This document shows positions 28,801 to 61,608 of a stretch of 64,000 nt of DNA, piece after piece. The DNA lies in assembly GCA_964016885.1 (NCBI GenBank), contig OZ024740.1, positions 117,800,001-117,864,000 on the forward strand, written 5' to 3'. Positions within the stretch are counted from its first letter, which is position 1; every line of letters begins with the position of its first letter. The stretch comes from Eledone cirrhosa. Lineage: Eukaryota. The translations under genes and the position numbers were made by a program. Under the pieces are notes generated by a model. That model was not told where the DNA came from. It made no database searches and worked only from the letters and a program-made list of their open reading frames with translations.

Positions 28801-30084
28801 CTCTAATTCCAATAAAATACTTTAGCCAATAATGGCCATCCAATAAAATAATTTATTGGATGGCCGTTGACTCTCCTGAGTTCCTCGGCTCTTTGACGGG
28901 TTTTGTTTTCACCCTGCAGGGTGTCCAACATCCCCTCCCCCACCAAGCAAGCTTGGTGAGGTTGCTGGTTCAGTCGCAGATCATGCGCAGGTTGTACTAG
29001 GTTAGATGTTACTAGTAGCACTGAAGAGCGACCTGACATACATGCATATGGATATACGTACACACATACATGCATACATACATGCATACATATTTGCATA
29101 CGTGCATACTTACATACATAGATATGAACATACATATCGACATACATACAAAAGATTATGAAAGTATTGAAACATTGATGATAGATTCCGGAGCATACGT
29201 ACAAATACACCGAGCCACTCACACACACATACAATTCACACTTAGGCACACACACACATATATATATATACATTCAGATTTTCATAGAGAGAGAGGGAGA
29301 TAGGAAGAGAACGCTAGGATGGCTTTGCCTGGAAGTAACAGACTAAGATAAATGCATATATTCTATGAGATATAGCACACAAATACTAAATAAATTGCTT
29401 GCATTCCAGGCAAAAATACGTCTATATTTTTGAAATTACTAATAATGATTTTTGATTTGTTGGTTCGGCTGTCTCTTTTTGTTGGTTTTTCTTCTCCCCT
29501 TTATTCACAGTCAATTTTTTTTATCATATTCCTAGCGTTGTGTGCTCCATAGTTTTTTGGTAATTCAAGATAGGTTCCTCAATTATAATTTTAAGATGCA
29601 TAAAATTCAAGAATCTTACAGGAATATTTTGTTTTATTTCTTTAAATTTCATGTTTGGTTTTGTTTATAATCATTTTATCTTATATGTAAGTACGTTTAT
29701 GATAGATAATTTCTCCAGGCTATTTGATAAATACGCTTCTTTCATTTTTAATGCATATGATACCAACCCCATGGACTCTAAGTTTGATAAATATATATTT
29801 TATGAGATAAAACAATTTATTAGAGACTACATGTACATAAGATTATTATGACTATAACACAAATAGTAGGATCGGTTTTTAACATACAAATGATGTTTTA
29901 GGAACAATGGATATGATGTTATGATGTTCATGCTTGTTCTATTATAATATCGTACTTCCACACATCCATATATACAAAACGAAAGACACGAAAGGCAACG
30001 ATAGTAATATTTATAATAAATTCATTCAACCATGTCTATCTAGTCTAAAGTCTCTCTCAAGCCAGGAGATTCGTCAGGCCAGCG

Positions 30085-30300
30085 CTTATCCCGGTTTCGT
30101 GGCGTGAAGCAACTGAGAGTACAAGACTCTCCTCTGAACAGGACGCCAGTCCATCGCAGGGTTCAACACCTGGTACTCATTTTCAACTGAGTATACTGGA
30201 GCAACGTGAAATGAAGTGTTTTGCTCAAGAAAACAACAAGCAAAACCCAACCCAGGAATCGAACCCACGATATTATGACAGTGGTAAAAGTGTTGGGCTT
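30085..30300 (-). mobile_element. tRNA-derived SINE
   Basis: Minus strand carries B box GGGTTCGATTCC, then TTGAGCAAAACACTTCATTTCACGTTGCTCCAG...GCGATGGACTGGCGTCCTGTTCAG, a conserved central-domain-like SINE core. Confidence 0.75.
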
Positions 30301-31449: not shown

Positions 31450-32950
31450 AAATCCTTAACAGAATCAAAGCTCTATCTTCTGTGCCTATCACTACGCCTT
31501 TCGTAGAACCATATCTACAATTACTCTGATGTCCTGTGTAATTCGTCAGTGATTTTTCACTATTGACAATTTGTTGAAAGTAATGTCGTTGAACTTGACA
31601 TTAGGTCACTTAGCTAAACACTCCAACTATGGGCTCCATCCTTCTTTATTGTCTCGAGTCCTAAAATTCATGTCAGATCGTACCATTGTAGCGTTTCTAG
31701 ACGGTCTCTATCTCAGCAACACCTCATCAACGCTGGTGTTTAAAAATTGGGTTATGGCACACTCACTATTCTTCGTGTACATTAGCAATATACTGGCTGC
31801 TACCTCCAGCTTTTCACATCTATGTAACTAATAGCAGGTCCCAATTCTCCTAAACCTACCACATCTATGTGTTATCCACACCCAACCTTCATGAAACATG
31901 TGATCTTAAAACATAAATAGTGATCTTAAAACAATCTTTGATGGGGCGACATAACAGATTTGGAAATATTTTCCAACGAGGATATACTGATGTTGCTTCC
32001 CCTGAATGTATGAATAATTCTTGCTCTCTTTGTTCTACTTTCCCTTCTTTTATTGTCCTCCTCTCCCTGCTAGTTCTCCTTAGTCTCCATTTCTTCTCAT
32101 TGCTCTCCTTTTTCTCTCTAATCCCATTGCTCCTATAACTCTCGCCACTCCCTTTGCTCTCTTTGCCCTGCTTTCCTTCTTAGAGCAAGGAGTGAAGGGA
32201 GACAAGTATGTAGATCAAGGAGAACTAGCACAGAATTGAGAGTAATAAGAGTAAGGAGTGAAGGGAGTGAATGGAGAGCAAATAGAGCAAGGAGAGCAAG
32301 CTGTGAAAGGAGAGCAAGGAGAGCAAGGAGAGCAAGGAGAGCAAGGAGTGAATGGAGAGCAAGGAGAGCAAGGAGAGCAAGAAGTGAAGGGAGTGTAAGG
32401 AGAGCATTGACAGCAAGGGTAGCAAGGAGTGAAGAGAGAGCAAGGGGTGCAAGGAGAAAAAGAGGTGAATGGAGAGAAAAAAGAGCAAGGAATAAAGGGT
32501 GAGTAATGAGAGAAAGGAGTGAAGAGAGAGCAAGGAGAGCAAGGAGAGCAAGAAGTGAAGGGAGAGTAAGGAGAGCAAGGAGTGAATGTAGACCAAAGAA
32601 AATAAGGAGCGCTAGCAGGGAAAGGAGAGCAGGGAGCTGCACACCAAGAAGCAATTTCTAACCCACACTCACTAATACTAGATAATATGCAATGAAATCC
32701 CTCAACGTCAATAAAAATACTTGGTGATCTCACACACGAAATAGCAAAATCTGCATCCCAGTCCAGCCACCCTTTCTAAAATTAGAAATTATTTGAGACA
32801 GGAAAAGTCGCTAACGCTTTAGGAACCTCAAGTGAGAACCTGTAATGGAACGTCGCTGCTACTACACGCAAAAAATATTTTCAATATGAAAGCAATCTAA
32901 CTGACTGGCAACATCTCATTCACCATTACTTTATCTCACAGTTGTGTTGT
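31450..32950 (+). mobile_element. Old jockey/CR1-like LINE RT remnant interrupted by a minisatellite
   Basis: YGLHPSLLSRVLKFMSDRTIVAFLDG...LFFVYISNIL resembles RT segment YG...L.WI.SFLSDR.I.V.VDG...LF..YINDLL; downstream fragments after 32650 are weak. Confidence 0.5.
32020..32640. repeat. 9-bp-based minisatellite (GGAGAGCAA)n with an inverted pyrimidine-rich 5' part
   Basis: GGAGAGCAA/GGAGTGAA units at 32181-32640; TTGCTCTC-type units at 32020-32180. Confidence 0.85.
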
Positions 32951-33000: not shown

Positions 33001-33028
33001 AATAATAATAATAATAATAATAATAATG
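33001..33028. repeat. (AAT)n tract, left boundary of the array and 3' tail of Tx1 copy 1
   Basis: Read directly; preceded by (AGT)/(AGC)n at ~32954-33000. Confidence 0.95.
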
Positions 33029-33306
33029 ATTTCATTTATTAACCACAAGGGCCGACATGTAGGGGACAATACAAAGACAAGGACAGCGGGGGTTTACAAT
33101 AAGGTCGAGTAAAAGTGCACAATGGCAAGACTAATTTAACAATGAAAATATAAAAATATAAAATAAACTATGCATAAATACAACAAAATAAATTCCCCGA
33201 TAGGGGGTGGACGACCGTGGGGTGACTCGGGTACCCCACCAATCCTGAACCACCCTGCGCTTCTATGGCACCCAGGGAGAGCACCCCTCTCCTCAAGTTC
33301 TCTAGC

Positions 33307-36300
33307 CTATAGGCGCATGGTCAGAGTAGGCCCATTCACACGAGCCATTCTCGCCACATTCACCCACCTTTTAGCAAATGTACTGGGGGGCAGCACTTCT
33401 CTCTCCACCCTCACCTTCCTTTCCAGGTGAAACTTGAAGAAGTTGATGAGGGATTGGCCGAAGAGAAAAGTATCTGTCTTCAGTCCTTTTAACCTGGTCC
33501 ACCATATAACCTCTTTCGCAACTGCCACCAGGCAGAGGAAAATTTCCTGCTCTTCCTGACCTAAAGAAGGCGGTGGATCGATCTTCACTATGGACTCGGC
33601 CGATAGCCGGATTCGTTCAACACGCGACAGTAGCTGTTCGACATAACTCCACAAGTCAGTAATGCACGGACATTGGACAAGAGCGTGCAGAACGGTTTCG
33701 TCGTTCTGTGCGCATCTTGGCCAGGTCCGTCTGACAGCACTTCAGTGCCTGTAGAGTTTATCCCAAACCGGCAGTGCCCCCGGTAGCACTGCCAAGCGAG
33801 GGATTTCTGGAAATTGTCCATCGTCCCCGGCTCAAAAGTCCTCCGGTACAGACTGGTCAGTTCGACTTCGTCGCGGCCCAAAGCTTCTCCGAGTGCGTCA
33901 TCGCACTTGCCCACCACTAATCCTCTATAGAACTCGAGAGTGGAAGTTCCACTGATCGCATTGACCGCTTGGTAGAGGGCAGTGAGTGCCTGGCAACATT
34001 CCAGGTGCCAGTCACCCAGTCTCGGTCTCTTCTTGACCCAGGACTGCAGCTCAGTCAAAGAAATGAGCTGCGGAAAGGCCCGTCTGATAAACGGCGACCA
34101 CACCTGTTCACCGTTGAGGCAGAATATCTGGAGATGTCACAGCCTCAACGCATGACTGCGCATCATTAGCCACGGCATGCCCAGCCCTCCGCGTAGAGGG
34201 TACTGGCAGCAGATGGACCGCCTCACCAACGGAACTTGTCCTCTCCACAAGAATTTGAAGAGGAGCCTTTCCAACTTGACGAGGCGCGGACGGGGGCAAG
34301 GCACGACGGTCAGGCGGTAGTAGATGACGGACGTGATGTACGCTTTCGCCACCTCCGCGCGACCTTTCAGTGATAGCTTCCTCCCAGCCCATTTTTGGGT
34401 GAGACTGGCTACTCTGCTCGTTACCTCGTCCCAATTCTTTTCCACCTGGAGGTCTGGTCCGAACCAAACCCCGAGCAACTTTACCGGTCCGTCCGTCCAG
34501 CTCCCCACGAAGCTGTTGGACGGCATGGGCTTACTTCTCCAGGTTCCGAGCTGCAAGCCCACCGACTTTTCGGGGTTAAGTTTGGCTCCTGTCAACCTTT
34601 CATATTCCTTCAATAAGGTGCCGACCACCTCGCTTTCTGAGGTGTTCGAGACCATCACGGTGATGTCGTCCGCATAAGCCGGCACCGACTTTCCACGTCC
34701 CGGTTCGAGCGGGATGCCCTGCAACAGCTCCAGCTTCCGCAGTAAAGGCTCGAGAGTCAATACGTACAGAAGGGAAGAGAGAGGGCACCCTTGACGGACC
34801 GATCTGGAGAGCCGAAATGGTTCCGAGAGGTGGCCATTAACCTTGACCCCTGAGCGTGTGCCGCTGTGCATTTCAGCGATCTAGCTTCTGAAGACAGGGC
34901 CGAAGCCAGCTGCTTTGAGGACAAACTCCAGATACCAATGGTCAACCCCATCGAATGCTTTCGATTGATCTAAATTGATCAGTGCCCTACCGAAGTCAGG
35001 TTTACACCCTACCCTCTCTATGATGTATCGCATGAGGTGGAGATTGTCGTGTATGGACCTGGCTGGGATTGTGCAAGTTCTCGTGTTCTCGTCTTTCCTT
35101 ATCAGCGTCACCATTCCCCTGATCACAGAACTGGGAATACTCCCATTCTGCTGCCAGTTGCAGTAAAGTGCTTCGAGGAGTTCAGAGAACAAGTGTGGCA
35201 TATTTGCGTAAAGCTCGTAGGGAAGGCCATCCAAACCTGGTGACTTGCGCCTTATGCAGCCGACAAGGCCGTCCTGAATTTCGGCTGAAGTAATCGGCCT
35301 TTCGCAGCGCTCAGCGTCGACCGTCGAGATGCGCGGCAAGCCGTCAAGATAGGGACTGAAATCCGCTACTCTCTCTGACTCGCCACTCTCCCCGAACAAC
35401 CGAGCAAAGTGCTGGCGAAAGGCCTCACACATCCGCTTGGAATCGCTTATCTCGTGTCCGTCTCGGTCCGCCAAAGACCAAATTGTGGTTTTATTACCAC
35501 GCTGCGCCTCCGCCACGCGGGCCCATCGAACAGCTTTGGTTCCCTCGTTTCTCAGCTCACGCGCCTTAGCTCTGACAATGCAACCTTCGTGTTTCGCATT
35601 GAAGAAATGGTCTAATGCCATTCTCGCCGCTAGCACGCCAGTTGCAATGCCACTACAAATAGCTTCGTCTAACTTATCTACCAACTCCCCCTCCTTTCTA
35701 TTTTCTCTAACGCTAGTTCTTTGCTGAACTCTATCGAAGTTACTCTAATCTCTCTTTTGAGAGCCCCCCACCATCTGTTGTTGATGATCTCCCCTGTCAA
35801 CTTTTGCTTAACAAAATTGTTGACTCGGTCCCTGTAAGCCTTACGTGGCGGAAATGACATGTTCAGCTTCCAGTAACCCGGTCCTAACCTACGCGTTTTA
35901 TCTAGGTCGACCGTACAGATCACAAATTTGTGATCTGAATAGGCGACCATTTTAAAAAGTGGGCAGCCCACACTATTTCTATCTATTTTCCTAATGAAGA
36001 TCCTGTCTATATACGATCTAGATGACCCCATTCGGTTGGTCCATGTCCACATTGGCACATTGGGGAAATCTAGTCGATACCTGTCAGACAGTTGGAACTG
36101 GTTGAGTAGGTGCTTGATGCTTTTGCACACCCCGTTCCTATCGGCTACTCCCACACAATCCCAGCGTGCGTCTAAGATGCCATTCCAGTCCCCCGCTAAT
36201 AGTAAAGGGAGAGACGTACGCAGAAGGGTCTCCAGGCGCATAAAGAAGTCCGGTCGTCCGGCCCCTGTAGGGGCGTAGACGGCCAGCAGTCTAAAGGCAC

Positions 36301-36598
36301 GACCTTCGCTACTGTTCACATCCAAGACCACCAACTTACCATCCGGGTCCCGGAAGATCGACATTACCTCGAGATCCAGTCCTTTCCTAAACAGCACTGC
36401 CACCACCCCCCATTCCCGGTCTGCTAACAGATGCGAAGATCTGATAGTCGTCGAAAATGGGGGCTAGTGCGCGCGTGTCGGTCTCGCTGACGGCAATCAC
36501 ATCATTTCCAGCGACCTGAGGTCGTTGAACAGGCGACCCTGCTTCCAGGGTGACCCCAGGCAGCGAACATTTAAACTTCCTACTCTTAATATGGCCAT
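33307..36598 (-). pseudogene. Tx1 family 1 ORF2 (APE endonuclease, reverse transcriptase, C-terminal zinc finger; frameshifted, internal deletion)
   Basis: MAILRVGSLNVRCL start, VYAP, GDWN, SYIDRIF, YSDHK, GPGYWKLN, KSPGLDGLPYE, LDQSKAFD, RQGCPLSSLLY, YADD, GGLGMP. Confidence 0.92.
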
Positions 36599-36627
36599 AT
36601 TGGTAAGCTAAGAGAGAGAGGGAAGGT

Positions 36628-38609
36628 TTACTTACCTCCTGGGGTCTTGTGAAGGTCGGGTTGTTCGACCTCCATGGTTGGTGGAGTTTCTTTTGGGAAC
36701 CCCTTTAAAAGTCTTGATGTGGGTTTCACATTCGGGGTTCCCACGTCTTGAGGAAAGCTCTCTGGAATTTCTTTGAAGGAATTGAGTGACATTCGAACCA
36801 GAAGCAAATCTTCTGGCACGCAAAATGTGCTCATTTCAAAAATCCCCCCCTCTGTTTGAATGTCCTCGCTTCGTGCTAAGAGGGCCATCAGTTTATCGTT
36901 GGCCCTTCTGACAAGCACGAACATTTTTACATTTTGTTGGTGTGGTTTTATTTGTTTTCGTTTTGGTGACTGTGGTAGTGATGGTTTTGGTGGTGTTGTT
37001 TCGGGTATGTCTGTGTTTGTTGGAGGTGTGGTGTCAGCAATTTCAGGTATTTGTATGTTTGTTTGTACTAGTGTTTGTTTAGGTTGTTTGCGTTTCGGGG
37101 ATTGTGGAGGTGGTGTCGATGTTGCTGTTGGTGATGATGTTATTGGGGAAGTGTTTGCGTTAGTGGTGCCTGTATTTTTTGTTGTGTATGTTTTTGTGTT
37201 TTGTTGGGGCTTTTTTTGCGAGTTTTCTGTGTTTGTTTTGCACTTTTGGGTTTCCTTCATCTTCGCTGCTGGAAGACAAAGGGTCTGTGGCTGTGAGTGT
37301 CTCTGTGTCTGTGTGTGCGTTTATTGTTTTGTCTATGTGTATAATTGGGGGGTAGGGGGAGTGGGAGGGCTTTCCTCATTTTCCTCTTGGATTGGTTTTG
37401 GTGTTGGTGGGGATCCGGCTGTTTTTGATGTTGGTGTTCGTGTTTTTGTTGGTGTTGTTTTTGGTGGTGGTGGTGGTGCAGCTTTCCGTGCTGACACTGG
37501 CGTTGGCAACAAAGGAGGTTTGTGACCCCCTGCATTTTTGCGCTGAGGGCAGAAGGCTTGCAGATGCATTGCTTCCCGCAGACGAAGCAGCGTGGCCTTC
37601 TTCTGTCAATGATTAGTTGGATTATTGTCCCGTCCTGCAGGCGGGCAAAATCCGGGATGTTGTTCATGTCCTCCGGTTTCATTTGGAGAAGAATCTCCAA
37701 ATCCATTCCGGACCAGTCCTCTCTCTCTGTCCTTTTGATATCCAGGAGGGTAGTGTCTGTCCCCTCCTCGATTACGCATCCCAGCAGCCACCATATGTTC
37801 ATTCCTGGTGGGATGCTGGGAATGCGTACCTTTACTGTCCTTTTACCCATGTAGGACGGATGCATGTTAATGAGTTCCGTTCTGCCGGGGGCCACCGAGT
37901 GCTTAATAGCGAGGGCCTCAATTTTGAACAGTACCGATAATGCCGAACTGTTTGCCTCTTGCTTCGTACTCTATGTTACTTCCGATGTACTCCAAAGCAG
38001 CCTCGACCTCTGCTTGGCTAGCAAGTTCCACTTTTCGTGTCTGGACCGAAATGCATCGAAAGAACACCGTCCTCCTTTGCATGGCCGCTATTGCCTCGTC
38101 CGGGATGGTCAGGTTTGCCCAGGACTTCTCCCGTTTAATTAGCCTCCACGCTTGTGCCAACTGTTCTTCTTTATCGCTAATATCAATATCAATATTCAAT
38201 AAGCGCTTTGTTTTGCTGTTGCTGCAGCAAATGTGGTGCTTCTGATGCTCTTGTTGTTGGTGTTGTCATTCTTGTTGTTGTTATTGGTGTTGTTGTTGTT
38301 GTTTTGTTTGTTGATGCTGTTGCCACAACCATCCGTGTTTACATTGAAGCTGTCGGTGTTATTGTCGTTATTGCTCTGAGTTGTTGTTGTGGTGGTGGTG
38401 GTGGTGGCGGTGGTAATGATGTCGTTTGCAGATGATACTGCTGCTATCACAGAAGGTTGTGATGGTAGCTTTTTAGTTTTGCCTTCACATCCAGTAGAGT
38501 GGATGACAGGCATGACTGTAGCCGTTGTAGTCGTGGTGAAATCTACAGTGGCTGCCTTTAAACTTTTGACATGAACGTTGTTTACCGTTTCAAGGTCGAA
38601 CATTTCCAT
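36628..38609 (-). pseudogene. Tx1 family 1 ORF1 (frameshifted; T/N-rich N-terminus, zinc knuckle, P/T-rich C-terminus)
   Basis: ORF pieces 38196-38609, 37918-38199, 37257-37895, 37333-37569 and 36628-37260; RRPRCFVCGKQ / HLQAFCP is a split CX2CX4HX4C. Confidence 0.8.
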
Positions 38610-38831
38610 AATTTTTTTTGGTGGGGAAGCGATTTTTTTCGAAGTTTTTAAAAAATAAATCTGAATATTGGGGCTTAAAGCCCGAATATTGAGAGGTATC
38701 CCTCTCTTTAAATCAAGATCTATACCTTAAGTTTCGTTAACGACAAGAAAATTAAAAAAATGACACGTTAAAACAGTTTAAAGTTACGAACCTTTCCCAC
38801 GCAGATTTGTAGTCTTCACACATGTGCGGCC

Positions 38832-38870
<39 letters not shown>

Positions 38871-38884
38871 CAATTAATAACAAT
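38832..38884. repeat. (AAT)n spacer between Tx1 copies 1 and 2
   Basis: Read directly. Confidence 0.95.
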
Positions 38885-39131
38885 GCTTTCTTTATTAACC
38901 ACAAGGGTTTACATAAAGTAGACATTAAGGACAGTACAGGACAATACAGGACGGTACAAATGGGCATTTCTGCGTGTAAAAAAAACAGAGGATGTAATAA
39001 AAAAATAACAATGAAAAATTCCCCAATAGGAGGGAGACTTCCGAGGGACATTTGTGGAGAAAGCCCATTAAAAGGCCACAGTGACCCTGACCACCAGGGC
39101 AAGTGCTCTCTCCCAGTTTTCCACGTTTAAT

Positions 39132-42100
39132 TTACAGACACATAATCAGGGCCATACTTGCTTCTCTCACACATCTTTCAACAAAATGCTGGGAAGAGAG
39201 CACTTCTCTCTCTACTCTTATTTTCCTTTTCAAATGAAATTTGAAAAAGTTAATTAGGGCATCACCGAAGAGGTAAGTGCTCGTCTTCAGCCCTTTCAAA
39301 CGTGTCCACCATACTATCTCTTTCGCCATGGCCACCAGACAGATAAAAACTGACTACCCTTACCGGCTAAAGGAAGAGGACGGGGCAATCCTCACGATAG
39401 ACTCAGCTGATAGCTGGATCCGTCCGATACGTGACAGCAGGTGTTCGACATAAACCCACAAGTCAGCAATGCTCGGACACTCGACGAGTGCGTGCAGGAC
39501 TGTTTCGTCGCCCTGCGCGCATCTCGGACATGCCCGGCTGACGGCACCTCCATGCCTGTAGAGTTTATCCCGAACTGGCAAAGCTCCTAGGTAGCATTGC
39601 CAGGCCAGGGATTTCTGGAAGTTGTCCTTAGGCCTCGGCCCGAAAGTCCTTCCGAAGAGATTGGCTAGTTTATTTTCGTCAACGCCTAGAGTTTCTCCAA
39701 GTACGTCGTCGCTCTTCCCATCCACTAATCCTCTATAGAACGCCAAGGTGGAGTTTCCACCGATCACATTGCCCGATTGGTCGAGAGCTGTGAGCGCCTG
39801 AAGACATTCCAGTCTCCAAGCGCTCCCTCTCGGCCCTCGATTGACCCAGGACTGCAGCTCCGTCAAGGAGACGAGCTGGGGAAATACGTGTCTAGCAAAC
39901 GGCGACCACACCTGATCACCGTCGAGGAAGAGGTGGAGATATCGTAGCCTGAGCGCGTGTCTGCGCATCATCAGCCACGGCATGCCCAGCCCTCCACGTA
40001 GCGGGTGTTGACAGCAGATGAAACGCTCCAGCGCAGTCAGGCGGGGCTTAGGACAAGGTACGACGGTCAGGCGGTAATAGATGACGGACACGATGTACGC
40101 GTTAGCCACCTCCGCTCGACCTTTCAGGGATAGCTTCCTCTCCGCCCATTTCTGGGTGAGAGAAGCCACCAGGCTCGTTACCTCGTCTCAGTTTTTGTCC
40201 GTCTGGAGGTTCGGACCGAACCAGACCTCTAGCAATTCAATCGGTCCGTCCGTCCAGCGTCCGACGATGCTGTTGGACGGCATGGACCTGCCTCTCCAAG
40301 TGCTGAGCTGCAGGCCCACTAACATTTCCTTATTGATCATTGCTCCTGTCACCGCTTCGTATTCTCTTAGTGTAGTGCCGATCGCCTCGATGTGTTTGGC
40401 GTTCGACACCACTACGGTGACATCGGCCGCATATGCTGACACGGATCTTCCGCCTCCTAGTTCGCGCGGGACGCCCCTCAACGTCTCCAGTTTGTGCAGT
40501 AATGGCTCGAGAGTACAAGAGGGACGAGAGGTGACATCCTTGGCGGACCGAGCGCATGATGTTGAACGGTTCCGAAAGGTGACCGTTCACTCTCACCACA
40601 GAGCAGAAGTCGTTGTGCATGGCAGCGATCCAGCCTCTGAAGACGGGCCGAAAGCCAGCCGCCCTCAGGACTGCCGCTAGGTAACGATGGTCGACCCTAT
40701 CGAAAGCTTTCGACTGATCTAAATTGATCAAGGACCCACCCGTGCCAGGTTCTCTAGCTACCACCTCTACGATGTATCGCACGAGGTGGAGATTGTCGTG
40801 GATGGATCTGTCGAGAATGGCGCATGTCTGCGCCTCTCCCACCAGACCACAAGCGAGAAACTCTTTGCTAGCACCGTGGCCAAAATCTTGAACTCTGTGT
40901 TTAGCAGAGTTATGGGCCTGAAATTATCTATGTTATCCCCCTTGTTCGGATCCTTTTCTCAGCAGTGCCACCACTCCTCGGCTCACAGAGCTGGGAATTC
41001 TCCCGTTCTGTTGCCAGTTACAGTAGACGTCCGTCAACAGGCTTTAGAACAAATCTGGCATCTGTACATAAATTCATAGGGCAGACCATCCAAACCAGGC
41101 GATTTACCACTTGTGCAGCCAGTCATTGCTTCCCGTACTTCAGCGGCTGTTATCGGCTTTTCGCAACACTCCGCCTCCGTGGCTGAGAGCCGCGGCAATC
41201 CATCGAGGTAGACACTAAAGTTCATCCCTCGATCCGGCCCGCCGCTGCCCCCGAACAGCTGGGCGATGTGTCGCTGGAAAGCTTCACACATTTGCCCGGG
41301 ATCGAGTAGCATGCGCCCGTCGTGGTCCACCAAAGATCGGATCGTGGCTTTGTTGCCACGACGCGCCTCCGCCACTCGGGCCCATTGAACGGCTTTCGTC
41401 CCCTCGTGTCTGAGAGCACGCACCGTAGCTCTGACAACACAGCCTTCGTGCTTTGCATTGAAGAATTGGTCAAGGGCCAATTTCGCCGCAAGTACGTCGG
41501 TCGCGATGCCTTTGCTAAGCGCCTCGTCTAATTGTCTAACTAATTCTCCCTCTGCTCTATTTTTCTCTATTGCTAAAGACTTACTAAACCTAATCGATTC
41601 TATTCTAATTGCTCTTTTCAGAGCAAACCACCACTTGTTGTTGACGATGGCCTCCGTCAACGCCCGCTTAACTAGTTCGCTAATCCGGTCTCTGTAGGCC
41701 TTGCGCGCTGGTAAGGACGCGTTTAGCTTCCAGTAGCCGGATCCTCGTCAATTAAGCCTATCTAAGTCAAGCACACAGATCACGAATTTGTGGTCCGTGT
41801 ACCTGACTATCTTGAATTGTGGACAGCCTATGTTAGACCTATCTATTTCCCTACAAAATACTCTATCTAGATATGATCTGGATGACCCTATGCATTTTGT
41901 CCAAGTCCACATTGGCACATTCTGGAAATCCAATCAGTACCTGTCAGACAGTTTAAAACGCTTGAGCAGGTTGGCGAGACTCTTGCACCCTCCTCCCCTA
42001 TCCGCTAATCTCACACAGTCCCAGCGTGCATCTAAGATCCCGTTCCAGTCGCCCACTAACACTAAAGAGCGGGACGTTCCAAGAAAGGTCTCCAGACGCC

Positions 42101-42469
42101 GGAAGAAATCAGGCCGCCCTGCTCCTGTCGGGGCATAGACGGCCACTAGCCTGAAAGCTTGCCCATCTCCGCTGGTCACGTCCAGCACCACCAACTTACC
42201 CTCTGGATCCAGGAAGATGGCCCGTATGGCGAGATCCAAACCTCTCCGAAAAAGCACAGCAACTCCTCCCCCGATCCAGGACGGTTGGGAGATGCGTACA
42301 CATCGTAGCCGCCGAACATCGGTGCGAAGGCCCGTGCTTCGGAGATTCTGGTCTCGCTGATGGCCACTACAACTATGTTTAGTGACCTGAGGTCGTTGAG
42401 CAGGTGACCCTGCTTCCATGACGACCCCAAGCCACGCGCATTTATGCTGCCTATTCTGAGTGAGGTCAT
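39132..42469 (-). pseudogene. Tx1 family 2 ORF2 (APE-RT-CCHC; frameshifted)
   Basis: MTSLRIGSINARGL, ISET, VYAP, GDWN, SYLDRVF, YTDHK, KSPGLDGLPYEF, LDQSKAFDRV, RQGC, YAAD, CPRC..DETVLHALVECP. Confidence 0.92.
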
Positions 42470-42546
42470 GTTAAAATGGAGTGGAAAAGATGGGTAAGAC
42501 CACTTACCTTACTTCTCGTAGAGGAAGGACGGTTTCTCCACCCTTT

Positions 42547-44469
42547 TCACGGTTTGGTGGCCTCCCCCGGAAGGATGTTCTTATAAATCCTCCTGGAGAG
42601 TGCTTGTCGGAAGTCTCCGATGTCTTTGGGGAATTTTTGTTTTAGTGTCATGTACGTTTTCTGTGTGATGCGAGTGATTTGTATGTGTGGAGGTGGTGTG
42701 AACTTTTGGGTTGTTGTGTAGTCTTTTTCTGTGATGCTGGTGTTGTGTTGGATGTAATGTAATAATTGTTTGTTGTTCAAATTTAATGCTGTGTAGTGTG
42801 TATCGTTTAGGTTGTTTTGTTTTGTTTGTGTTTGTTGTGGGTTTGTTTCTGTTTCGAGACTTTTGTGGTGTAGGTGATGGTGGTGTTGGGGTTAATGATG
42901 GTGATGGTGTTGGTGTTTGGGGTGATGGGGTTGGTGATGCTGGTGTGGATGGTTGCATATCTGTCCTAACTTTTTTGTTTGATAGTTTATTTGTTTCTCT
43001 CTGCATTTTGTTTTTGGAGGGGGGAAGGAAGAGTATTTTTTCTTTTTTGGTTTCTTTTTTGGTTTCTTTTTTTCTTTTTTCCAGATACCGTTTCCCACTC
43101 CTCGCCGTCACTATCTGTCTCCAGTTGTGATAGGCCGGGGAGTGAAAATCCTCCACAGGCGTTAGTTTTGGTTGTGGCGTGGTGGATGGTGTAGGCGCTG
43201 GTGCTAGTTCTGGCGCGTTGGGTGGTGGTGGTGTTGGCTTTGCTACTGTTGCTTGGGTTGTTGCTGTTACAGTTGCTTCTGTTGTTGCTGCTACAGTTGT
43301 TGCTGCCATCTCTGCTGCTGGTGGTGTTGATGGTTGAGTCACTGGGGTGGGTAGGAGAGGTGGCCTCAACCTTTTAGCCTGAGGGCAGAAAGCCCGTAGG
43401 TGGGTTCCTTCACCACAAACGACACACCTAGGCCTTCTGCCCTCGACAATTACGCTGAGGTGACTGCCGTCAGTGAGGTCTATTACCTCTGGGATCTCCT
43501 CAATGATTTTTTCGTCCGCTTGGATCAGGAGCTCCATCCCAGATCCGGACCAGTTCTCCTACTTTTCTTTCGCTATTTCGATTATCTTGGTGTTGGCTTC
43601 GATGCCGGCGAGGACGGTAGCTATTAGCCAGGGAATTTCGATGGCCGGTGGAACGTGGGTGACCCTGATCTTTACGAGTCTCTGGCAACAATAGCTTGGG
43701 ACGAGTGTGAAGTCGTCACTTCTTAATGGGGCCATGGAGTGTTCTCTAGCCTCCTGTGGTGTTTCAAAGAACACGTCCACGGTTCCATACTTCTGCCCAC
43801 GTCTGATGTGGGATTTTTTTGCCCACACATGTCCCAAAGCTTTTTGGATTTGTGACTCGGATGCCCGTTCAACTCGGCGCGATTTTATATTAATTGTTCG
43901 ATAAGACAAGGTGCATAGGCGCCGATGCTCCATTTTATTAGGGGGGTGGGGTGGGGGGTGGGTGAGGCTGACCCTGTACCCATCTTTCTTTACCATTTTT
44001 TTGGCTTCTTCTAATTCCTCCTGAGTTACCTGAAATGCTTCGCACTGTTTTGCTACTCTGGCAAAACTCAGGGTGGTTTTCTTAATGTCATTGTTGCTGT
44101 TGTTGTTATCGTTATTTTTGTTTTTATTAATTTTAGTTTCAGTTGTGGTGGTGGTGGCGTCAGTTGTGTTCGGTGTGGAAAAGTTCATTTTGGTTGAATT
44201 CATTTCGATATCACGAGTTAATTAATTTTTTCTTTTGTTTCTGTTGTCGCGGTGGTGGTGGGGATGGGGGTTGTCGCGGTGGTGGTGGTGGTGGCGGCTT
44301 TAACACCTGCAGTCATTGGTAATGGCGGGAAATGAATGTCTGCCTGAGACAAATTTAAAATATTGCTACTGCTTATATTTTTAGTGTTGGCAAACGTAGT
44401 AATATTTCCAATGGTGGTGTCGGTGTGAGTTGTTAGTTTGTGAGAAAGGAGTGACTCTGAGTCAGCCAT
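42547..44469 (-). pseudogene. Tx1 family 2 ORF1 (frameshifted)
   Basis: Pieces 44218-44469, 43559-44203, 42581-43537 and 42547-42780; intact knuckle RRPRCVVCGEGTHLRAFCP. Confidence 0.82.
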
Positions 44470-44683
44470 GATTTTTCAAAGAAAAATTTTTGTTTGATAA
44501 TTATAAAAGTTTAAATTTTGGGCTGAAGGCCCCAATCGTTTTGGGTGTCCTTTTCATATAACAATGTATGTGCACTTATATACAGTTAACAATACAAATT
44601 TTCCATGAATGGCAATTTTAAACAACTGAAAATAACAAACCTTTGCGGAGCTCACGATGATACGATTTACTACGTAGGTCGCC

Positions 44684-44722
<39 letters not shown>
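44684..44722. repeat. (AAT)n spacer between Tx1 copies 2 and 3
   Basis: Read directly. Confidence 0.97.
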
Positions 44723-44724
<2 letters not shown>

Positions 44725-46612
44725 TTTCTTTATTAACCACAAGGGTTTACATAAAGTAGACATTAAGGACAGTGCAGGACAATGCAGGACGGTACAAATG
44801 GGCATTTCTGCGTGTAAAAAACAAAAACAGAGGATGTAACAAAAATAACAATGAAAATAACAATGAAAAATTCCCCAATAGGGGGGAGACTTCGGAGGGA
44901 CATTTGTGGAGAAAGCCCAGTAAAAAGCCACAATGACCCTGACCACCAAGGCAAGTGCCCTCTCCCAGTTTTCCACCTTTAATTTACAGATATATACTCA
45001 GAGTAGGCCCATTCACTCGGGCCATTCTTGCTTCTCTCACCCATCTTTCAACAAAATGCTGGGAAGAGAGCACTTCCCTCTCTACTCTGATTTTCCTTTT
45101 CAAATGAAATTTGAAAAAGTCAATCAAAGCATCACCGAAGAGGTAAGTGCTCGTCTTCAGCCCTTTCAAACGTGTCCACCATACTATCTCTTTCGCCATG
45201 GCCACCAGACAGATAAAAACTGCCTGCCCTTCCCGGCTAAAGGAGGAGGGCGGGGCAATCCTCACGATGGACTCAGATGATAGCTGGATCCGTCCTAAAC
45301 GCGACAGCAAGTGTTCGACATAAACCCACAAGTCAGCAATTTTTGGACACTGGACGAGTGCGTGCAGGACGGTTTCGTCGCCCTGCGCGCATCTCGGACA
45401 TGCCCGGCTGACGGCACCTCCATGCCTGTAGAGTTTATCCCGAACTGGCAAGGCTCCTCGGTAGCACTGCCAGGCCAGAGATTTCTGGAAGTTGTCCATA
45501 GGCCCCGGCCCGAAAGTTCTTCCGAAGAGATTGGCTAGTTGATTTTCGTCGACGCCTAGAGTTTCCCCAAGTACGTCGTCGCTCTTACCCTCCACTAATC
45601 CTCTATAGAACGCCGAGGTGGAGTTTCCACCGATCACATTGCCCGATTGGTCGAGGGCTGTGAGCGCTTGAAGACATTCCAGTCTCCAAGCGCTCCCTCT
45701 CGGCCCTCGATTGACCCAGGACTGCAGCTCCGTCAAGGAGACGAGTTGGGGAAAGACGTGTCTAGCAAACGGCGACCACACCTGATCACCGTCGAGGAAG
45801 AGGTGGAGATGTCGTAGCCTGAGCGCGTGTCTGCGCATCATCAGCCACGGCATGCACAGCCCTCCACGTAGTGGGTGTTGACTGCAGATGGACCACCTGA
45901 CCATCGGAGCCCGTCCCTTCCACAAAAAGCGAAAGAGCAAACGCTCCAGCGCAGTCAGGCGAGGCTTAGGACAAGGTACGACGGTCAGGCGGTAGCAGAT
46001 GACAGACGCGATGTACGCGTTAGCCACCTCCGCTCGACCTTTCAGGGATAGCTTCCTCTCCGCCCATTTCTGGGTGAGAGAAGCCACCCTGCTCGTCACC
46101 TCGTCCCAGTTTTTGTCCGTCTGGAGGTCCGGACCGAACCAGACCCCTAGCAATTTAACCGGTCCGTCCGTCCAGCGTCCGGCGACGCTGTTGGACGGCA
46201 TGGACCTGCCTCTCCAGGTGCCGAGCTGCAGGCCCACTGACTTTTTCTGGTTGATCATTGCTCCTGTCACCACTTCGTATTCTCTTAGTGTAGTGCCGAT
46301 CGCCTCGATGTGTTTGGCGTTCGACACCACTACGGTGACATCGTCCGCATATGCTGACACGGATCTTCCGCCTCCTAGTTCGCGCGGGACTCCCCTCAAC
46401 GTCTCCAGTTTGTGCAGTAATGGCTCGAGAGTCAATACGTACAAGAGGGACGAGAGGGGACATCCTTGGCGGACCGAGCGCATGATGTTGAACGGTTCCG
46501 ACAGGTGACCGTTCACTCTCACCACAGAGCAGATGTCGCTGTGCATGGCAGCGATCCAGCCTCTGAAGAGGGGCCCAAAGCCAGCCGCCCTCAGGACTGC
46601 CGCTAGGTAACG

Positions 46613-46614
<2 letters not shown>
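44723..46614 (-). mobile_element. 5'-truncated Tx1 family 2 copy with an uninterrupted RT-to-C-terminus frame
   Basis: ORF 44984-46684 (its poly-L N-terminus is microsatellite read-through) contains RQGCPLSSLLY, YADD and CPRC...H...C; near-identical to 38885-40688; (AAT)n on both sides. Confidence 0.93.
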
Positions 46615-46666
<52 letters not shown>

Positions 46667-46673
46667 TAATAAT
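46615..46673. repeat. (AAT)n tract at the orientation switch of the array
   Basis: Read directly. Confidence 0.97.
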
Positions 46674-47900
46674 GGAAGACGCACGTGGTGGATAGAAGGT
46701 CGTGAAATCGCTCCCGTAAGTTTTGAATTTTTAACATATTTAAATCATTTGTGAAATAACAATTCTTAGTACAAATGTTACGTAAAGCATCGGCTTGAGC
46801 CCCAACAAAATTCGGACCCAAAATATATTGTTATAAGGCTCAAATATTCAATTTTGTATTGTACATTGTATATTCAAAAAAGAAAATGGCTATAAATGGA
46901 AGAAGAAGACCCCCCTCCTCTGTCTACACTATATAGAACAGCCAAACAACAGCAATTTCACCAACACCAGAAACTAGATACACCACCTACCCCATCACCC
47001 CTCTGTGTACACTAAACACAACAGCCAGATAACGGCAATTTCACCACCACCACAACCAATCTCAACATAATAATGATAATAATAATTACTATTATTATTG
47101 TCCCAAGTTTTAACAAAATGTTTAATTCCAACATTAAGGGAATTTATGTCAACACATGTACGCGACTAACCCCATAGATTCACCGAACGGACATCAGTAA
47201 CGACAACGCCATCACTACAGTCACCGCCGCCGCCGCCCATCCATCATTACTACCACTATCCCATCACCGTCGCAACCACTCCTTAATTGCTACCACCGCT
47301 ATACCCCCACTACCTTCTGTTAACTTACGAAAGGGGAGGATGGCGATATCACTAGACAATATTGGTAAACAAGATTAATATTTAATTTTGGATCAGGAAT
47401 GTTGGAGTCGAAAATAGCAAAATGACTAAACGACTACAGATTATTATTTCACCACCAATACCACCACCACTACCACGATGAAAACTCTGGTCAAATCGAC
47501 TCAAATTTATACCCCAACTACAACACCATCACTACAGTAATACGACCACATCACCACCACTACTAAACGACTACAGATTATTATTTCACCACCAATACCA
47601 CCACCACTACCACGATGAAAATTCTGGTCAAATCGACTCAAATTTATACCCCAACTACAACACCATCACTACAGTAATACGACAACATCACCACCACCAC
47701 TGCCTCAGTATCGCTACCGCCGCTATTCTCTCCCACTACCTCCTGCTAGTTGCTGCTAGCACAGCACCGCCACCAGATTGTAGAATTCCTACTAAAAAAG
47801 AGGAAGGCATCAAAATGTATAAATAGACTCAAAAGAAAAAACAAAAATCAAAATCAAAGCAGCACAAGCAACAACAACAAAAAAAAAACAAAAAAAAACG
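46674..47900 (+). repeat. Unclassified unit X1 (CAC/AAC-rich) with an internal 137-bp tandem duplication
   Basis: 46727-47360 is homologous to 56708-57330; tandem copies at 47425-47561 and 47562-47698. Confidence 0.75.
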
Positions 47901-48145
47901 TAAAGAAAATATGAATGAAGAGAGAAACAAACGGACGGACAGAGAAAGGAAGGGAAAAACTAAGTCAGACATTCGAACACTACATTACAATGAAACTTAT
48001 GCTTATTCATTTTTGGGATTTTTTCTGCCTGTTTGTTTGTTTGTTTATTTGTGTTCGTCTACAGCGTGATAATGCCACACAAGAGCCACGTGGAGTGACG
48101 CAACCACCGGAGGCGGTGAATCCACCGGTGGTTATGTAACCATAC

Positions 48146-51100
48146 ATTCGCCAATCCTCGATAAGAGTGTTTAAATGTCGAACCCAAACAGTTCGAATAA
48201 CGGTGAAATGGAGACTAGAACGTCATGTGACAGACTCTCACCCAACAGGTGCTCCTGGCTCAGCAGCAGGGACCTGGCTGTCAACCAAATACTGCTGGTG
48301 TCGGAGGAAGAAGAAGAAGGAAAGGGACCAGAACCAACTGAACGAAAGAATTGAATAGAACTGTTATGCAATGTTACCTGAAAAGTAACCCCAAGGAGAG
48401 GGGCTATAGGAAACGGATGCATAACATCTGGAACGAGATTGGTCTATTTAAATTAGATGAACAAAAATTGGCCGGGCAGGCTTGGGTAATAAGAACTAAT
48501 GGGTGGATAAGCGAGCTGGAACTGGAGGAACTGAGCAGAGAGATTAGCTTGGAGATGGCGGATGGAGTATGCAAGGCAAACGAGCCAGTGGGAAATGAAG
48601 GTGAAGAGGTAGAGAGGACGGAGGAACCACCCGAAGCAGACAATGATCTGAATGCTGAGATAAATAATACCTGGAACAGAGATACGGCCACTGAGGAGAT
48701 GAATGCTGATGGGCTAGGAAAAGATTTGGTTGATATCCTAAATTTAGTGGTAGATGAATTAAACAATGAAAGTGGGAGACCTATGACCTAAGATTTGTAG
48801 ACAGGAAAAAGTTAATAGAAACAACAGCTAAGGTAAACAAAGTCATCCCATACCTTGAGGCGAGGAGCCTTCACCAGTGCAACAATATCCTCAAAGCAAC
48901 AGCAAATACGGTGAGGAAACTACTTGGTATAAAAGCGAGAGGAAACAACAGACAAGAAAGAGCAGAGTCTTGGTGGAAGAAACGACTGAGTGGTCAAATC
49001 AGGGAAATGAGAAATGACATTGGAAAGCGTGAGTCCCTACTGAATGGGACACTAAAAAACATAGACACTAAAAATAGACTGGAAATAAAGTACAAAACTA
49101 GGAGGAAAAAGCTAAATATTATCATAGAGGAACTGAAGCAACGCATTGTAGCAAAGAGTGAAAAAATCAGGCGATACGAGAACAGAGTCAGTCAGTATAA
49201 ACAGAACCGCATGTTCGACAACAACCAGAAGGTGCTGTTTGGACAGCTTGAAGGGAAAGAAAGAGGCAATGAGTTGATCCCTGAGGCGGAACAAACTAAA
49301 ACATTCTGGAGAGGAATATGGGAACAGGATGTTAGACATAATGACCAGGCAGTGTGGATTGAGACAGTACAGAAGGAGATCAGTGAACAGGCACACCAAC
49401 AAACTGATTTGAGTATCACAGTTGAAACTCTTAAGGGGCAGGCCATAAAACTAACCAACTGGAAATCACTAGGCCCAGATGGTGTGCAGGGGTATTGGAT
49501 TAAAAATATAACATCCCTCAACCCGAAACTGACAACAATGTTCAATGACTGCTTGATGTCAGGTGAGGTACCAGAGTGGTTGACAAAAGGTACCACAGTT
49601 CTGATAATGAAAGACCGAATCAAGGGTAATGATGTTACCAACTATAGACCTATCACATGTCTGTCCGTAATGTGGAAACTGTTGACGAGCATTGTGTCTG
49701 AGGAAATCTACCATCACCTTCACACAAACAACTTGTTACCGGACGGACAGAAAGGATGCCGAAAGAAGTCACGTGGTACAAAGGACCAGTTACTTATTGA
49801 TAAGATGGTAATGGGGAATTGCAAGAGGAGACACACTGACGTTGCCATGGGATGGATAGACGACAGAAAGGCATTTGACATGGTGCCTCATTCTTGGATC
49901 ACCAAAAGCCTGGAGATCTTCAAGGTGGCAGATAACATCAGACAGTTGTTGGGCAAAAGTATGAGGTCCTGGGAAACAGAGCTGACATCAACTGGAGAAT
50001 CCTTGGGAAGCGTGAAGATCAAGAGGGGTATCTTCCAGGGAGATAGCCTGTCCCCTCTGTTGTTTGTCCTTGCCCTGATGCCCCTGACCAGTGTACTGCG
50101 AAAAGTGAGAGCAGGATATAGGTTGGGAAAGGGAGGGCTTACCATCAGTCACCTCCTCTTCATGGACGATCTTAAGCTCTTCGGGAAGAGTGAGAAGGAG
50201 TTGGATGTGCTTGTTGACACTGTCCGTGTTTTCAACAGTGATATATGTATGCAATTTGGTAATAGTAAGTGTGGAGTCATTGTGATGAGGAGGGGTAGGT
50301 TGAGCAGAAGTAACGGAATCCAGATACCAACAGGTGAGATGATAAAGGAAATTGACTCTGAGGAAGGATACAAGTATTTGGGCGTTCTGGAGGCTGATGG
50401 CATAAAGAACAAAAAAATGAAGGAATTATTAAGAACTGAATACATTCTGAGAGTAAGGAGCGTATTGAAGTCACATCTGTACAGCAGAAATGCCATAAGC
50501 AGTGTCTATTATTAGGTACAGTGCGGGAATTCTGAGATGGAATGTTGCTGAACAAAAAGAAATGGATAGAAGACTAGAAAGCTATTGACTATCTACAACA
50601 TGTTCCAGAAGAGGAGGGATATCGATAGACTCTACTTAAGGAGATCTGAGGGAGGAAGAGGTCTTATCAGCATAGAGGGCTGTGTTCAGATGGAGAAAAA
50701 CAACCTACACAAATACGTGACTGATAGTAAGGAGCCAATGCTCAGAACTATACTGAAGGAGGGGACAATAGGCCAGGGGATGTCCAAGGAGGAAATAACA
50801 TCAAGGAGAAAGAGCAGCCTTCAGGAAAAATCCCTTTATAGTACCTTCTTTGAGAAAACTGAATTCAGAGATCCACAGACATGGAACTGGTTGAAAAGAG
50901 GAGACCTTAAAAAGGCTACAGAAGGAATGTTAATGGCTGCGCAGGAGCAGGCCCTCAAAACGAAGTGGTTGAAACACCATATTTACAAGGAGGGGGCTAG
51001 CCCACTGTGCAGGATCTGTGGAGAGAGAGAGGAGACTGTGGCTCACATTGTATCCGAGTGTAAACACCTAGCCCAGACTCACTATAAGGGCTGGAGACAT

Positions 51101-51656
51101 GATGTGATGGGCAGGGTGATCCACTGGCACCTGTGCAAAGTAAACAATTTACCACATTCTGAGAAATGGTATGAGCATAAGCCAGAGGCGGTGATAGAGA
51201 ACGATCAGATGAAGGTGCTGTGGGATTTTAGGATACAGACGAACAAGAAACTGGAACACAATAGACCTGACCTGGTGGTTGTGGACAAAGAAAAAAGATC
51301 GTGCCTGATTGTGGATGTGGCCTGCCCATTTGACACGAGAGTGCAAGAGAAGGAGAGGGAGAAAATTAACCGATACCAGGACTTAAAGTGAGAGGTAAAA
51401 AGGATTTGGAACTGCCATGAAGTCAAAGTGATCCCGATTGTCATAAGCGCACTGGGGACTATCTCCAAAAGTTTCCAGGGATGGTTAAAGAAAATCGTCC
51501 CCTTCACGCTTTTTGGAACGCTTCAAAAGGCATGCTTGCTGGAAACAGCAAGAACACTCCGATACGTCCCTGATATCTGAGGCTGCAGGTAGTGGCTTGA
51601 TATTCATTCCAACAAACTTTCCAGTTAACTAACATCAATGACTGAGACTCAAGGAG
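48146..51656 (+). mobile_element. Near full-length R4/Dong-clade RLE non-LTR retrotransposon, family A (frameshifted)
   Basis: Single ORF (ATG 48208 to stop ~51580, broken) with [23 protein letters not shown] and [11 protein letters not shown]; CCHC CRIC...ETVAHIVSEC; RHD; PD..D/E endonuclease RPDLVVVDK...IVDVACPFD...EKINRY; (TAA)n tail 51657-51728. Confidence 0.93.
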
Positions 51657-51666
51657 TAATAACAAC

Positions 51667-51728
<62 letters not shown>

Positions 51729-51729
<1 letters not shown>

Positions 51730-52834
51730 CAAAAAGAAATGGATAGGAAGACTAGGAAGCTATTGACTATCTACAACATGTTCCACAAGAGGAGTGATGT
51801 CGATAGACTCTACCTAAGGAGATCTGAGGGTGGAAGAGGTCTTATCAGCATAGAGGACTGTGTTCAGATGGAGAAAAACAACCTATACAAATACGTGACC
51901 TATAGTAAGGAGCCAATGCTCAGCACTGTACTGAAGGAGGGGACAGTAGGCCAGGGGATGTCCAAGGAGGAAATAACATCAAGGAGGAAGAGCAGCCTTA
52001 AGGGAAAATCCCTTCATAGTACCTTCTTCGAGAAAACTGAATTTAGAGATCCACAGACATGGAACTGGTTGAGAAGAGGAGACCTCAAAAAGGCTACAGA
52101 AGGAATGCTAATGGCTGCGCAGGAGCAGGCCCTCAAAACGAAGTGGTTGAAGCACCATATCTACAAGGAGGAGGCTAGCCCACTGTGCAGGATCTGTGGA
52201 GAGAGAGAGAGGAGACTGTGGCTCACATTGTGTCCGAGTGTAAACACCTAGCCCAGACCCACTATAAGGGCTGGAGACACGATGTGATGGGCAGGGAGAT
52301 CCACTGGCACCTGTGCAAAGTAAACAATCAATCACATTCTGAGAAATGGTATGAGCATAGGCCAGAGGCGGTGATGGAGAACAGTCACGTGAAGGTGCTG
52401 TGGGATTTTAGGATACAGACGGACAAAAAACTGGAACACAATAGACCTGACCTGGTGGTTGTGGACAAAGAAAAAAGATCGTGCCTGATTGTGGATGTGG
52501 CCTGCCCGTTCGACACGAGAGTGCAAGAGAAGGAGAGGGAGAAAATTAACCGATACCAGGACCTAAAGTGGGAGGTGAAAAGGATTTAGAACTGCCATGA
52601 AGTCAAAGTGATCCCGATTGTCATAGGCGCACTGGGGACTATCTCCAAAGGTTTCCAGGGATGGTTGAAGAAAATCGGCCCCTTCACGCTTTTTGGAACG
52701 CTTCAAAAGGCATGCTTGCTTGGAACAGCAAGAACCCTCCGATACGTCCTGAATATCTGAGGCTGCAGGTAGTGGCTTGATATTCAATCCAACGGACTTT
52801 CCAGTTAACCAACATCAATGACTGCGATTCAAGG
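51729..52834 (+). mobile_element. 5'-truncated Dong family A copy T1
   Basis: Near-identical to the 3' 1.1 kb of copy A; (TAA)n tail 52835-52903. Confidence 0.93.
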
Positions 52835-52846
52835 AATAACAATAAC

Positions 52847-52903
<57 letters not shown>

Positions 52904-52915
<12 letters not shown>

Positions 52916-54175: not shown

Positions 54176-54185
54176 TAATAACAAC

Positions 54186-54235
<50 letters not shown>

Positions 54236-54236
<1 letters not shown>

Positions 54237-55339: not shown

Positions 55340-55351
55340 AATAACAATAAC

Positions 55352-55399
<48 letters not shown>

Positions 55400-55411
<12 letters not shown>

Positions 55412-56671: not shown

Positions 56672-56707
56672 AATAACAACAATAATAATAATAATAATAA
56701 TAATAAT

Positions 56708-61607: not shown

Positions 61608-61608
<1 letters not shown>
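57650..61608 (+). mobile_element. Full-length R4/Dong-clade retrotransposon, family B (few lesions)
   Basis: ORF pieces 57820/57903-58808, 58828-60702 and 60781-61464 carry [55 protein letters not shown]...ETIDHIISMC, RHD and RPDIILKD...LIDMSVP; (TAA)n tail 61609-61657. Confidence 0.93.

Follow-up and report, generated by a model that had tools for sequence, protein, structure and literature searches.

Organisation of the locus

The window analysed here is a stretch of 64,000 nucleotides of the Eledone cirrhosa genome (assembly GCA_964016885.1, contig OZ024740.1, positions 117,800,001 to 117,864,000); all coordinates below count from its first letter. Its right part contains three long interspersed nuclear elements (LINEs), termed C1, C2 and C3, which lie head to tail on the minus strand. 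They are of the type with two open reading frames (ORFs), an apurinic/apyrimidinic-type endonuclease (APE) and a reverse transcriptase (RT), and all three are flanked on both sides by (ATT)n, which reads (AAT)n on the plus strand. Members of two families entered a single tract on separate occasions, with every copy antisense to (AAT)n. These copies probably represent an octopod lineage of Tx1-type elements that genuinely prefers (ATT)n/(AAT)n microsatellites, a reading that includes a mechanism based on the RNA 3′ end and a nick in the repeat.

C1 (33028-38831, 5804 bp) is a full-length, decayed copy of family 1. It comprises a 5′ untranslated region (UTR; 38831-38610), ORF1 (38609-36628) and ORF2 (36598-33307), the latter with the order APE-RT-CCHC; about 110 nt are deleted from its RT near 35090. 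C2 (38885-44683, 5799 bp) is a full-length copy of family 2 and the most decayed of the three; its ORF1 (44469-42509) has two folds resembling the RNA recognition motif (RRM) and one CCHC knuckle, and its ORF2 spans 42469-39127. The least decayed copy, C3 (44723-46614, 1892 bp), is a 5′-truncated member of family 2, in which a 542-codon C-terminal half of ORF2 is open.

Four (AAT)n tracts separate and enclose these copies. The outer 3′ flank of C1 is (AAT)9 (33001-33027), which leftward runs into a (GTA)/(GCA)n compound microsatellite. Between the 5′ end of C1 and the 3′ end of C2 lies a tract (38832-38884) with about 18 degenerate bases beside C2, then 12 pure units; a pure (AAT)13 tract (44684-44722) is common to the 5′ end of C2 and the 3′ end of C3. 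Finally, (AAT)19 (46615-46673) stands between the truncated 5′ end of C3 and the 5′ end of a plus-strand repeat, X1. A GTT-interrupted variant of the repeat occurs at the 3′ junction of C2 (38867-38884) and again where the outer 5′ tract meets X1 (46658-46673). It is possibly a remnant of a founding target duplication, a weak reading because the tails of neighbouring Dong-type elements carry the same variant.

The distribution of AAT tracts within the window is uneven. Among perfect microsatellite tracts of at least 15 bp, none of the 39 in positions 1-32960 is AAT, as against 10 of the 17 in 32961-64000, and all ten adjoin a retroelement end. This association exceeds chance. The host-like part (1-32960) is poor in AAT tracts, and none of its 39 tracts contains an element of the C1-C3 type. 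The right part, 31 kb long, is nearly all retroelement and as a whole forms a pile-up on (AAT)n in which the Tx1-type copies run antisense, and the Dong-type copies sense, to the repeat.

Structure of the Tx1-type copies

The 3′ ends of the three copies are closely alike. A 17-nt motif ending in a poly(A) signal is found three times in the window, once per copy (33035-33051 in C1, 38891-38907 in C2 and 44729-44745 in C3, all minus strand). The AATAAA sits 6-7 nt before the first ATT unit (7 nt in C1), the 3′ register (C|ATT) is identical in all three, and there is no poly(A). At the 5′ end, a further motif occurs twice in the window, in the UTRs of C1 (38771-38795) and C2 (44620-44644); in C1 it contains a word that matches a splice donor at 7/9 positions, about 40 nt from the 5′ end. 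Both motifs had been described in the initial annotation as common to the two families, and both are as described. The hairpin it listed alongside them is indeed present at both sites (38663-38690 in C1 and 44517-44535 in C2, minus strand), with the counterpart in C2 predicted to be weak (folding energy -6.8 kcal/mol, against -13.2 in C1). The same annotation had the full-length copies start with TGGC straight after the repeat; GG does follow it at 38831 and 44683, while the T ends the tract and is not assignable to the element.

ORF2 matches the Pfam families Exo_endo_phos, RVT_1 and zf-RVT, i.e. an N-terminal APE, an RT and a C-terminal zinc motif. ORF1 gave no significant match to Pfam. The ORF1s had been called very different; they have diverged, but their cores still align at 37% identity and have one CCHC knuckle in common, so that by alignment they are diverged yet homologous. 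A model of the C2 ORF1 core (predicted local distance difference test score 92.5) contains two RRM-like domains and matches tandem-RRM proteins, with a best Foldseek E-value of 2.7e-5 and single-domain Z scores of up to a middling 8.3. The copies thus display traits of the L1 group, namely this ORF2 architecture, an upstream ORF1 that the model suggests is a nucleic-acid-binding protein with RRM-like and CCHC parts, 5′ truncation (C3) and a 3′ AATAAA (3/3 copies).

A splice-donor consensus is located at the ORF1 stop in C1 (8/9 positions, 36627-36637), C2 (9/9, 42500-42511) and L005, an element of the sister lineage described below (9/9); about 0.1 such words are expected per element. Family 2 also has a strong splice acceptor in its 3′UTR (44808 and 38970). 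This suggests that ORF2 could be spliced out, which would give an ORF1-only RNA.

Relationship to Tx1 and L1

A tree of the endonuclease (EN) and RT domains was built from 30 rows, with C2, plant and fungal rows left out, and rooted on six vertebrate-L1-like rows, whose label ‘L1’ is our own reading and not a source name. Tx1L of Xenopus is the sole named Tx1 reference in it. The window copies form a clade with P0147 and a protein of Argonauta hians (support 100/100), which joins the sister lineage, also at 100/100. A larger clade of 22 rows, including Tx1L, is supported at 100/99 and stands apart from the six L1-like rows. This agrees with the Tx1 side proposed at the outset; in the tree, C1-C3 belong with Tx1L and apart from vertebrate L1. 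Tx1L as the direct sister is weakly supported (86 by SH-aLRT, the approximate likelihood ratio test, in a quick tree in which the C2 row lacked part of the RT), and neither the 30-row tree nor a further one resolves this position. A profile made from the relatives scores 768 bits for Tx1L versus 577 for human L1 ORF2p, and L1 ORF2p structures were matched as well.

The nearest relative with an animal name is that of Argonauta, at 66% identity. A match at 68% is labelled as a bacterial metagenome-assembled genome (MAG) and is likely to be contamination. No sequence named Kibi or Koshi appeared among the database matches, and in a genome collection without a eukaryotic set, 42 pattern matches yielded no confirmed relative at the octopod level.

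Two families and their order of insertion

Between C1 and C3, identity is 72% at the amino-acid level and 73% at the DNA level, as against 95% DNA identity between C2 and C3, which divides the copies into two families, as first proposed. The decay of C2 and C3 was compared over their common 542 codons of ORF2 (514 gap-free). Within these, C2 has 3 stops, deletions of 8, 48 and 18 nt, and 10 synonymous to 28 nonsynonymous private changes; C3 has no lesion and a ratio of 14:13 (Fisher p=0.042). C1 carries 3 stops and a frameshift. Since C2 is decayed and C3 free of lesions, C3 inserted later, at the 5′ edge of C2. This sequential insertion supports the repeat as a target.

Unequal decay also makes a single template-jumping event unlikely: a one-step concatemer across three (AUU)n-tailed RNAs would fit the order, with two full copies and truncation only in the most 5′ copy, yet the presence of two families and the outer 5′ tract, which it leaves unexplained, render it the least credible of the explanations.

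The repeat as a probable target

The 5′ breakpoint of C3 (46614) joins the repeat with 2 extra bases before (ATT)n and no clear microhomology. The tract beyond it (46615-46673) is bounded by the 5′ end of C3 and that of X1; if X1 is read correctly, it is nobody's tail and represents target.

X1 (46674-47359, plus strand, with (AAT)n on its 5′ side) has a 5′UTR-like start related to C1 and C2, followed by a low-complexity ORF1-like stretch. It begins with GG and resembles the C1/C2 5′UTR on the plus strand, with a z of 4.8 against the 5′ end of C2 (0/2000 shuffles as good) and 2.8 against that of C1 (12/2000); the reverse orientation gave no signal. The nhmmer E-value is 0.0025 over 200 nt. When the whole window was scanned with the 5′ end of C2, X1 led narrowly (58 versus a background of 55.5); with that of C1 it fell just below one background site. 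At the protein level, X matched ORF1 in low-complexity sequence only. Taken together, these comparisons make a moderate case for kinship. A second copy, X2 (56708-57332, plus strand), is 78% identical to X1, lacks the first ~53 nt and directly follows (AAT)n. Repeat X is about 690 nt long, with a Tx1-like 5′UTR and no 3′ part, and is found twice immediately 3′ of (AAT)n; it could be a non-autonomous or 3′-lost relative with opposite target polarity. Twin priming, in which X1 would be the inverted 5′ part of C3, is rejected as the divergence between X1 and C2 is far above that between C3 and C2. A site at ~48080, considered as the missing 5′ end of X2, was also discarded (alignment score 32, below a background of 38). 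A 137-bp tandem duplication follows X1 (47425-47701).

Three further observations support targeting: a constant 3′ register with a tail unit equal to the target unit in two families that are only 72% identical, the rarity of AAT tracts in host-like DNA (0/39), and the insertion of C3 after C2. The claims of the initial annotation on the flanks are borne out accordingly: the repeat surrounds all three copies in the four tracts listed above, the truncated end at 46614 does join it, and it is not just a 3′ tail, given a tract between two 5′ ends. Its larger claim, that the two families are apparently specific for (ATT)n, is likely: at this one locus the repeat is found at both ends of all three copies, including a truncated 5′ end; specificity across the families is not thereby established.

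Several points weigh against targeting. All the evidence for specificity comes from a single locus, and three copies with the repeat on both sides amount to four tracts. Two of the three 5′ tracts double as the neighbour's 3′ tract, which means that the earlier count of repeats on both sides was not made on independent cases. The phase of the 5′ junction varies between copies, and X1 and X2 are relatives with the repeat in opposite polarity. The hairpin loop of the EN, proposed earlier as a place to look for target recognition, has 9 amino acids, the length found in L1, and differs between C1 and C2; that of Tx1L and TRAS1 has 11. No verdict follows from length, as the loop of the site-specific R1Bm is shorter than that of L1 (PMC1950540). 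Further points against targeting come from the sister lineage.

Arrays of the sister lineage and possible local re-insertion

A wider scan returned 45 loci, of which 41 (L001-L041) are on 16 eukaryote-like contigs of one MAG, CAXXMW01; the other 4 are distant (29-31%). The sister lineage is represented on contigs CAXXMW010000002-18 and by proteins P0001-P0022, and the analysis covers the 41 loci. The MAG is labelled Arenicella in GTDB, and its eukaryote-like contigs are apparently host contamination. The lineage is 40-41% identical to the window copies in amino acids, and its ORF1 core is homologous (24%, E=1e-9). Its loci are long arrays in which units of 6.5-6.8 kb follow one another head to tail; the arrays reach ~70 kb, with near-identical ORF2s and swapped ORF1s and 5′UTRs.

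None of 62 sister 3′ junctions on 15 contigs has three ATT or AAT units within 60 nt, and none has poly(A); the 16th contig, viewed separately, has no microsatellite junction either. Instead, the copies end in AATAAA and a spacer of 11-20 nt that is specific to the array or subfamily. RNA genes do not emerge as targets: Rfam gave no match in the window or in the 8 sister loci (of 41) that were scanned, and no tRNA was found in 11 of the 41. The EN loop is nearly constant in the lineage despite the differing spacers. As head-to-tail stacks form here without any microsatellite, the tandem arrangement of C1-C3 is weaker as proof of (ATT)n specificity. The sister junctions are themselves not independent, since unequal exchange, too, enlarges the arrays (compare the identical truncations in L021).

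The lineage habitually re-inserts at one site, and the most serious rival builds on this. C1-C3 may have arisen by local re-insertion at the edge of an existing copy, the founder having hit (AAT)n by chance and the spacers having been lengthened by slippage, with no genome-wide specificity. This is a possible explanation, if a less likely one than targeting. It draws on the private spacers of the 62 junctions, on the mixing of ORF1 subfamilies and truncated copies within arrays, and on the flanks, essentially unique in the 7 cases tested. In 2 of 3 visible 5′ flanks the spacer stands ahead of the first copy, and in L011 it encloses the complete array with two mismatches, as a target duplication copied anew would; double insertion is moreover a known route to tandem elements (PMC5932611). 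Local re-insertion requires, however, a chance hit on a rare tract (0/39) and two distant families drawn to one site. Furthermore, one spacer occurs on five contigs, of which at least 2 differ in their 3′ flanks, and the 5′ flank of L030 lacks it, so a spacer can travel with the element or its RNA; a travelling (AUU)n spacer would itself amount to microsatellite targeting. In this respect the sister arrays suggest how microsatellite specificity could arise.

Passive accumulation is improbable. Here, (ATT)n would be an element-encoded tail, and the stack would stem from a gene-free sink, unequal exchange or mis-assembly. Tandem duplication does occur among the Dong-type fragments (98.8% and 98.3% identity, identical breakpoints), and 31 kb of nearly pure retroelement would suit a sink. 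C1, C2 and C3 are not duplicates, however (73-95% identical), their junctions are base-precise, the 39 tracts of 1-32960 are without such an element, and a tail cannot account for the 46615-46673 tract.

Likely mechanism of target selection

If the preference for (ATT)n is real, transcription would pass the AATAAA, which lies 6-7 nt from the junction, and yield an RNA ending in a few AUU units. A nick made by the APE in the (AAT)n strand would free a 3′ end that pairs with the AUU units and primes reverse transcription. Joining of the second strand inside the same tract would leave (ATT)n on both sides and regenerate the target for the next copy; Dong-type elements occupy this repeat on the opposite strand. 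Within this scheme, pairing between RNA and primer combined with a permissive endonuclease is clearly likelier than an endonuclease that strictly reads the sequence. The difference in EN loop between the families speaks slightly for guidance by the RNA and against a dedicated nuclease, and pairing of the RNA 3′ end is reported to aid accurate priming in SART1 and R1Bm (PMC7265360).

A bolder version is tentative and rather doubtful: the target would be set by the RNA 3′ end and not by the endonuclease, and an octopod ancestor would have captured an (AUU)n guide and become a genome-wide (AAT)n specialist. The transcript would run into its own downstream flank and guide priming at matching DNA, giving arrays with private 11-20 nt spacers; the niche of Dong could be shared from the opposite strand with the nuclease unchanged. 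If true, APE LINEs would have a natural way of acquiring target specificity that can be reprogrammed.

Neighbouring elements and other features

The plus-strand neighbours have a single ORF with RT, CCHC and a PD..D motif, and end in (TAA)n. They fit Dong/R4, an assignment by architecture and target that was made without a tree of named R4 elements, and would carry a restriction-like endonuclease (RLE). Family A (48146-56707) comprises one nearly full copy (48146-51656) and four 3′ fragments, each of which ends in (TAA)n; a second copy runs from 61658 to the window end (64000). Family B (57660 to 61608, 5′ boundary approximate), followed by a (TAA)16 tail, is 42% identical to family A. The four fragments (51729-56707) form a duplicated pair with identical breakpoints (f1/f3 98.8%, f2/f4 98.3%), and A-rich microhomologies mark their 5′ breakpoints. 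The full copy is matched by the 3′ part of f2 and by the 5′ part of f4, which hints at recombination. Derivation of the (AAT)n tract from a Dong tail was rejected, there being no Dong 3′ end left of 33001. GC-rich, hairpin-like sequence precedes the Dong-type copies (57660-57780, 48080-48145) and is possibly an HDV-like (hepatitis delta virus-like) ribozyme, as reported for Dong (PMC3774820); Rfam gave no match.

Of the ORFs scanned with Pfam for host genes, 18 lie in the left 33 kb and two beyond it; the 18 contained no host gene, save an RT remnant. Two decayed, RTE-like RT elements lie at 4540-6920 (plus strand; weak RVT_1 match, short (CAA)-like end) and ~18550-19800 (minus strand), so that RTE-, Dong- and Tx1-type elements co-occur in the window. 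A degenerate purine-rich satellite with a 9-bp period (32182-32636) is situated just left of the cluster. Short fragments at ~10330-10560, 22620-22750 and 30050-30300 presumably resemble octopus short interspersed nuclear elements.

Comparison with known systems

Tx1 is one of three main target-specific groups (PMC4640811), and a telomere-specific Tx1 has been described (PMC10088271). Tx1 families are known on TC, TTC and TTCC/TTTC repeats (PMC4494074; PMC3812793). Kibi on (TC)n, Koshi on (TTC)n and the crocodilian families on (TTCC)n/(TTTC)n are, as described there, likewise Tx1-side APE LINEs embedded in a microsatellite, and C1-C3 would work in a similar way; their hosts are vertebrates, and none of their repeats is the (ATT)n that flanks C1-C3. 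Tx1L of Xenopus laevis (P0103) has the same APE-RT-CCHC ORF2 as the window copies, and differs in its reported Tx1D target (PMC1950540), its ORF2 length (1308 amino acids versus ~1150 in the relatives) and its EN loop (11 amino acids versus 9).

Like the window copies, the sister lineage ends just past AATAAA without poly(A), forms head-to-tail stacks and has the splice-donor word at the ORF1 stop; unlike them, it has no microsatellite at 62 junctions, and 11-20 nt spacers that differ among arrays. This contrast (stacking alike, spacers private, EN nearly identical) offers a handle on what selects the site, the RNA end or the nuclease. Target selection by APE elements is described as not well understood (PMC3812793).

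For Octopus vulgaris, 80 L1-Tx1 consensus sequences have been reported (PMC13282606), which, judging by host and class, probably include these families; the main text of that paper does not contain the word ‘target’, nor its supplement ‘target site’. The relevant parts of octopus and mollusc surveys (PMC8967140, PMC11203168, PMC9115989) list L1-Tx1 and/or Dong without any target. The literature searched, which did not extend to Repbase or Dfam, contained no (ATT)n/(AAT)n-specific Tx1, and novelty is therefore provisional. For elements of an otherwise known kind, (ATT)n is probably a new target, (AAT)n having been known so far, again provisionally, as the target of the unrelated Dong type only. 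If true, this would add a new microsatellite and a mollusc example to the independently gained specificities of the Tx1 clade.

The closest parallel in target is Dong itself (R4 clade), which is reported to insert into TAA repeats (PMC3812793; PMC3774820) and to be, with R4, nearly confined to cephalopods among molluscs (PMC10294476). It uses the same microsatellite as C1-C3 and occurs in this very cluster, but has a single ORF, a C-terminal RLE and a (TAA)n tail on the sense strand. C1-C3, with two ORFs, an N-terminal APE and the opposite (ATT)n polarity, are thus not R4 elements. If the preference is real, APE- and RLE-type LINEs have converged on a single repeat, each kind on its own strand, and this may account for the pile-ups of retroelements in octopus genomes.

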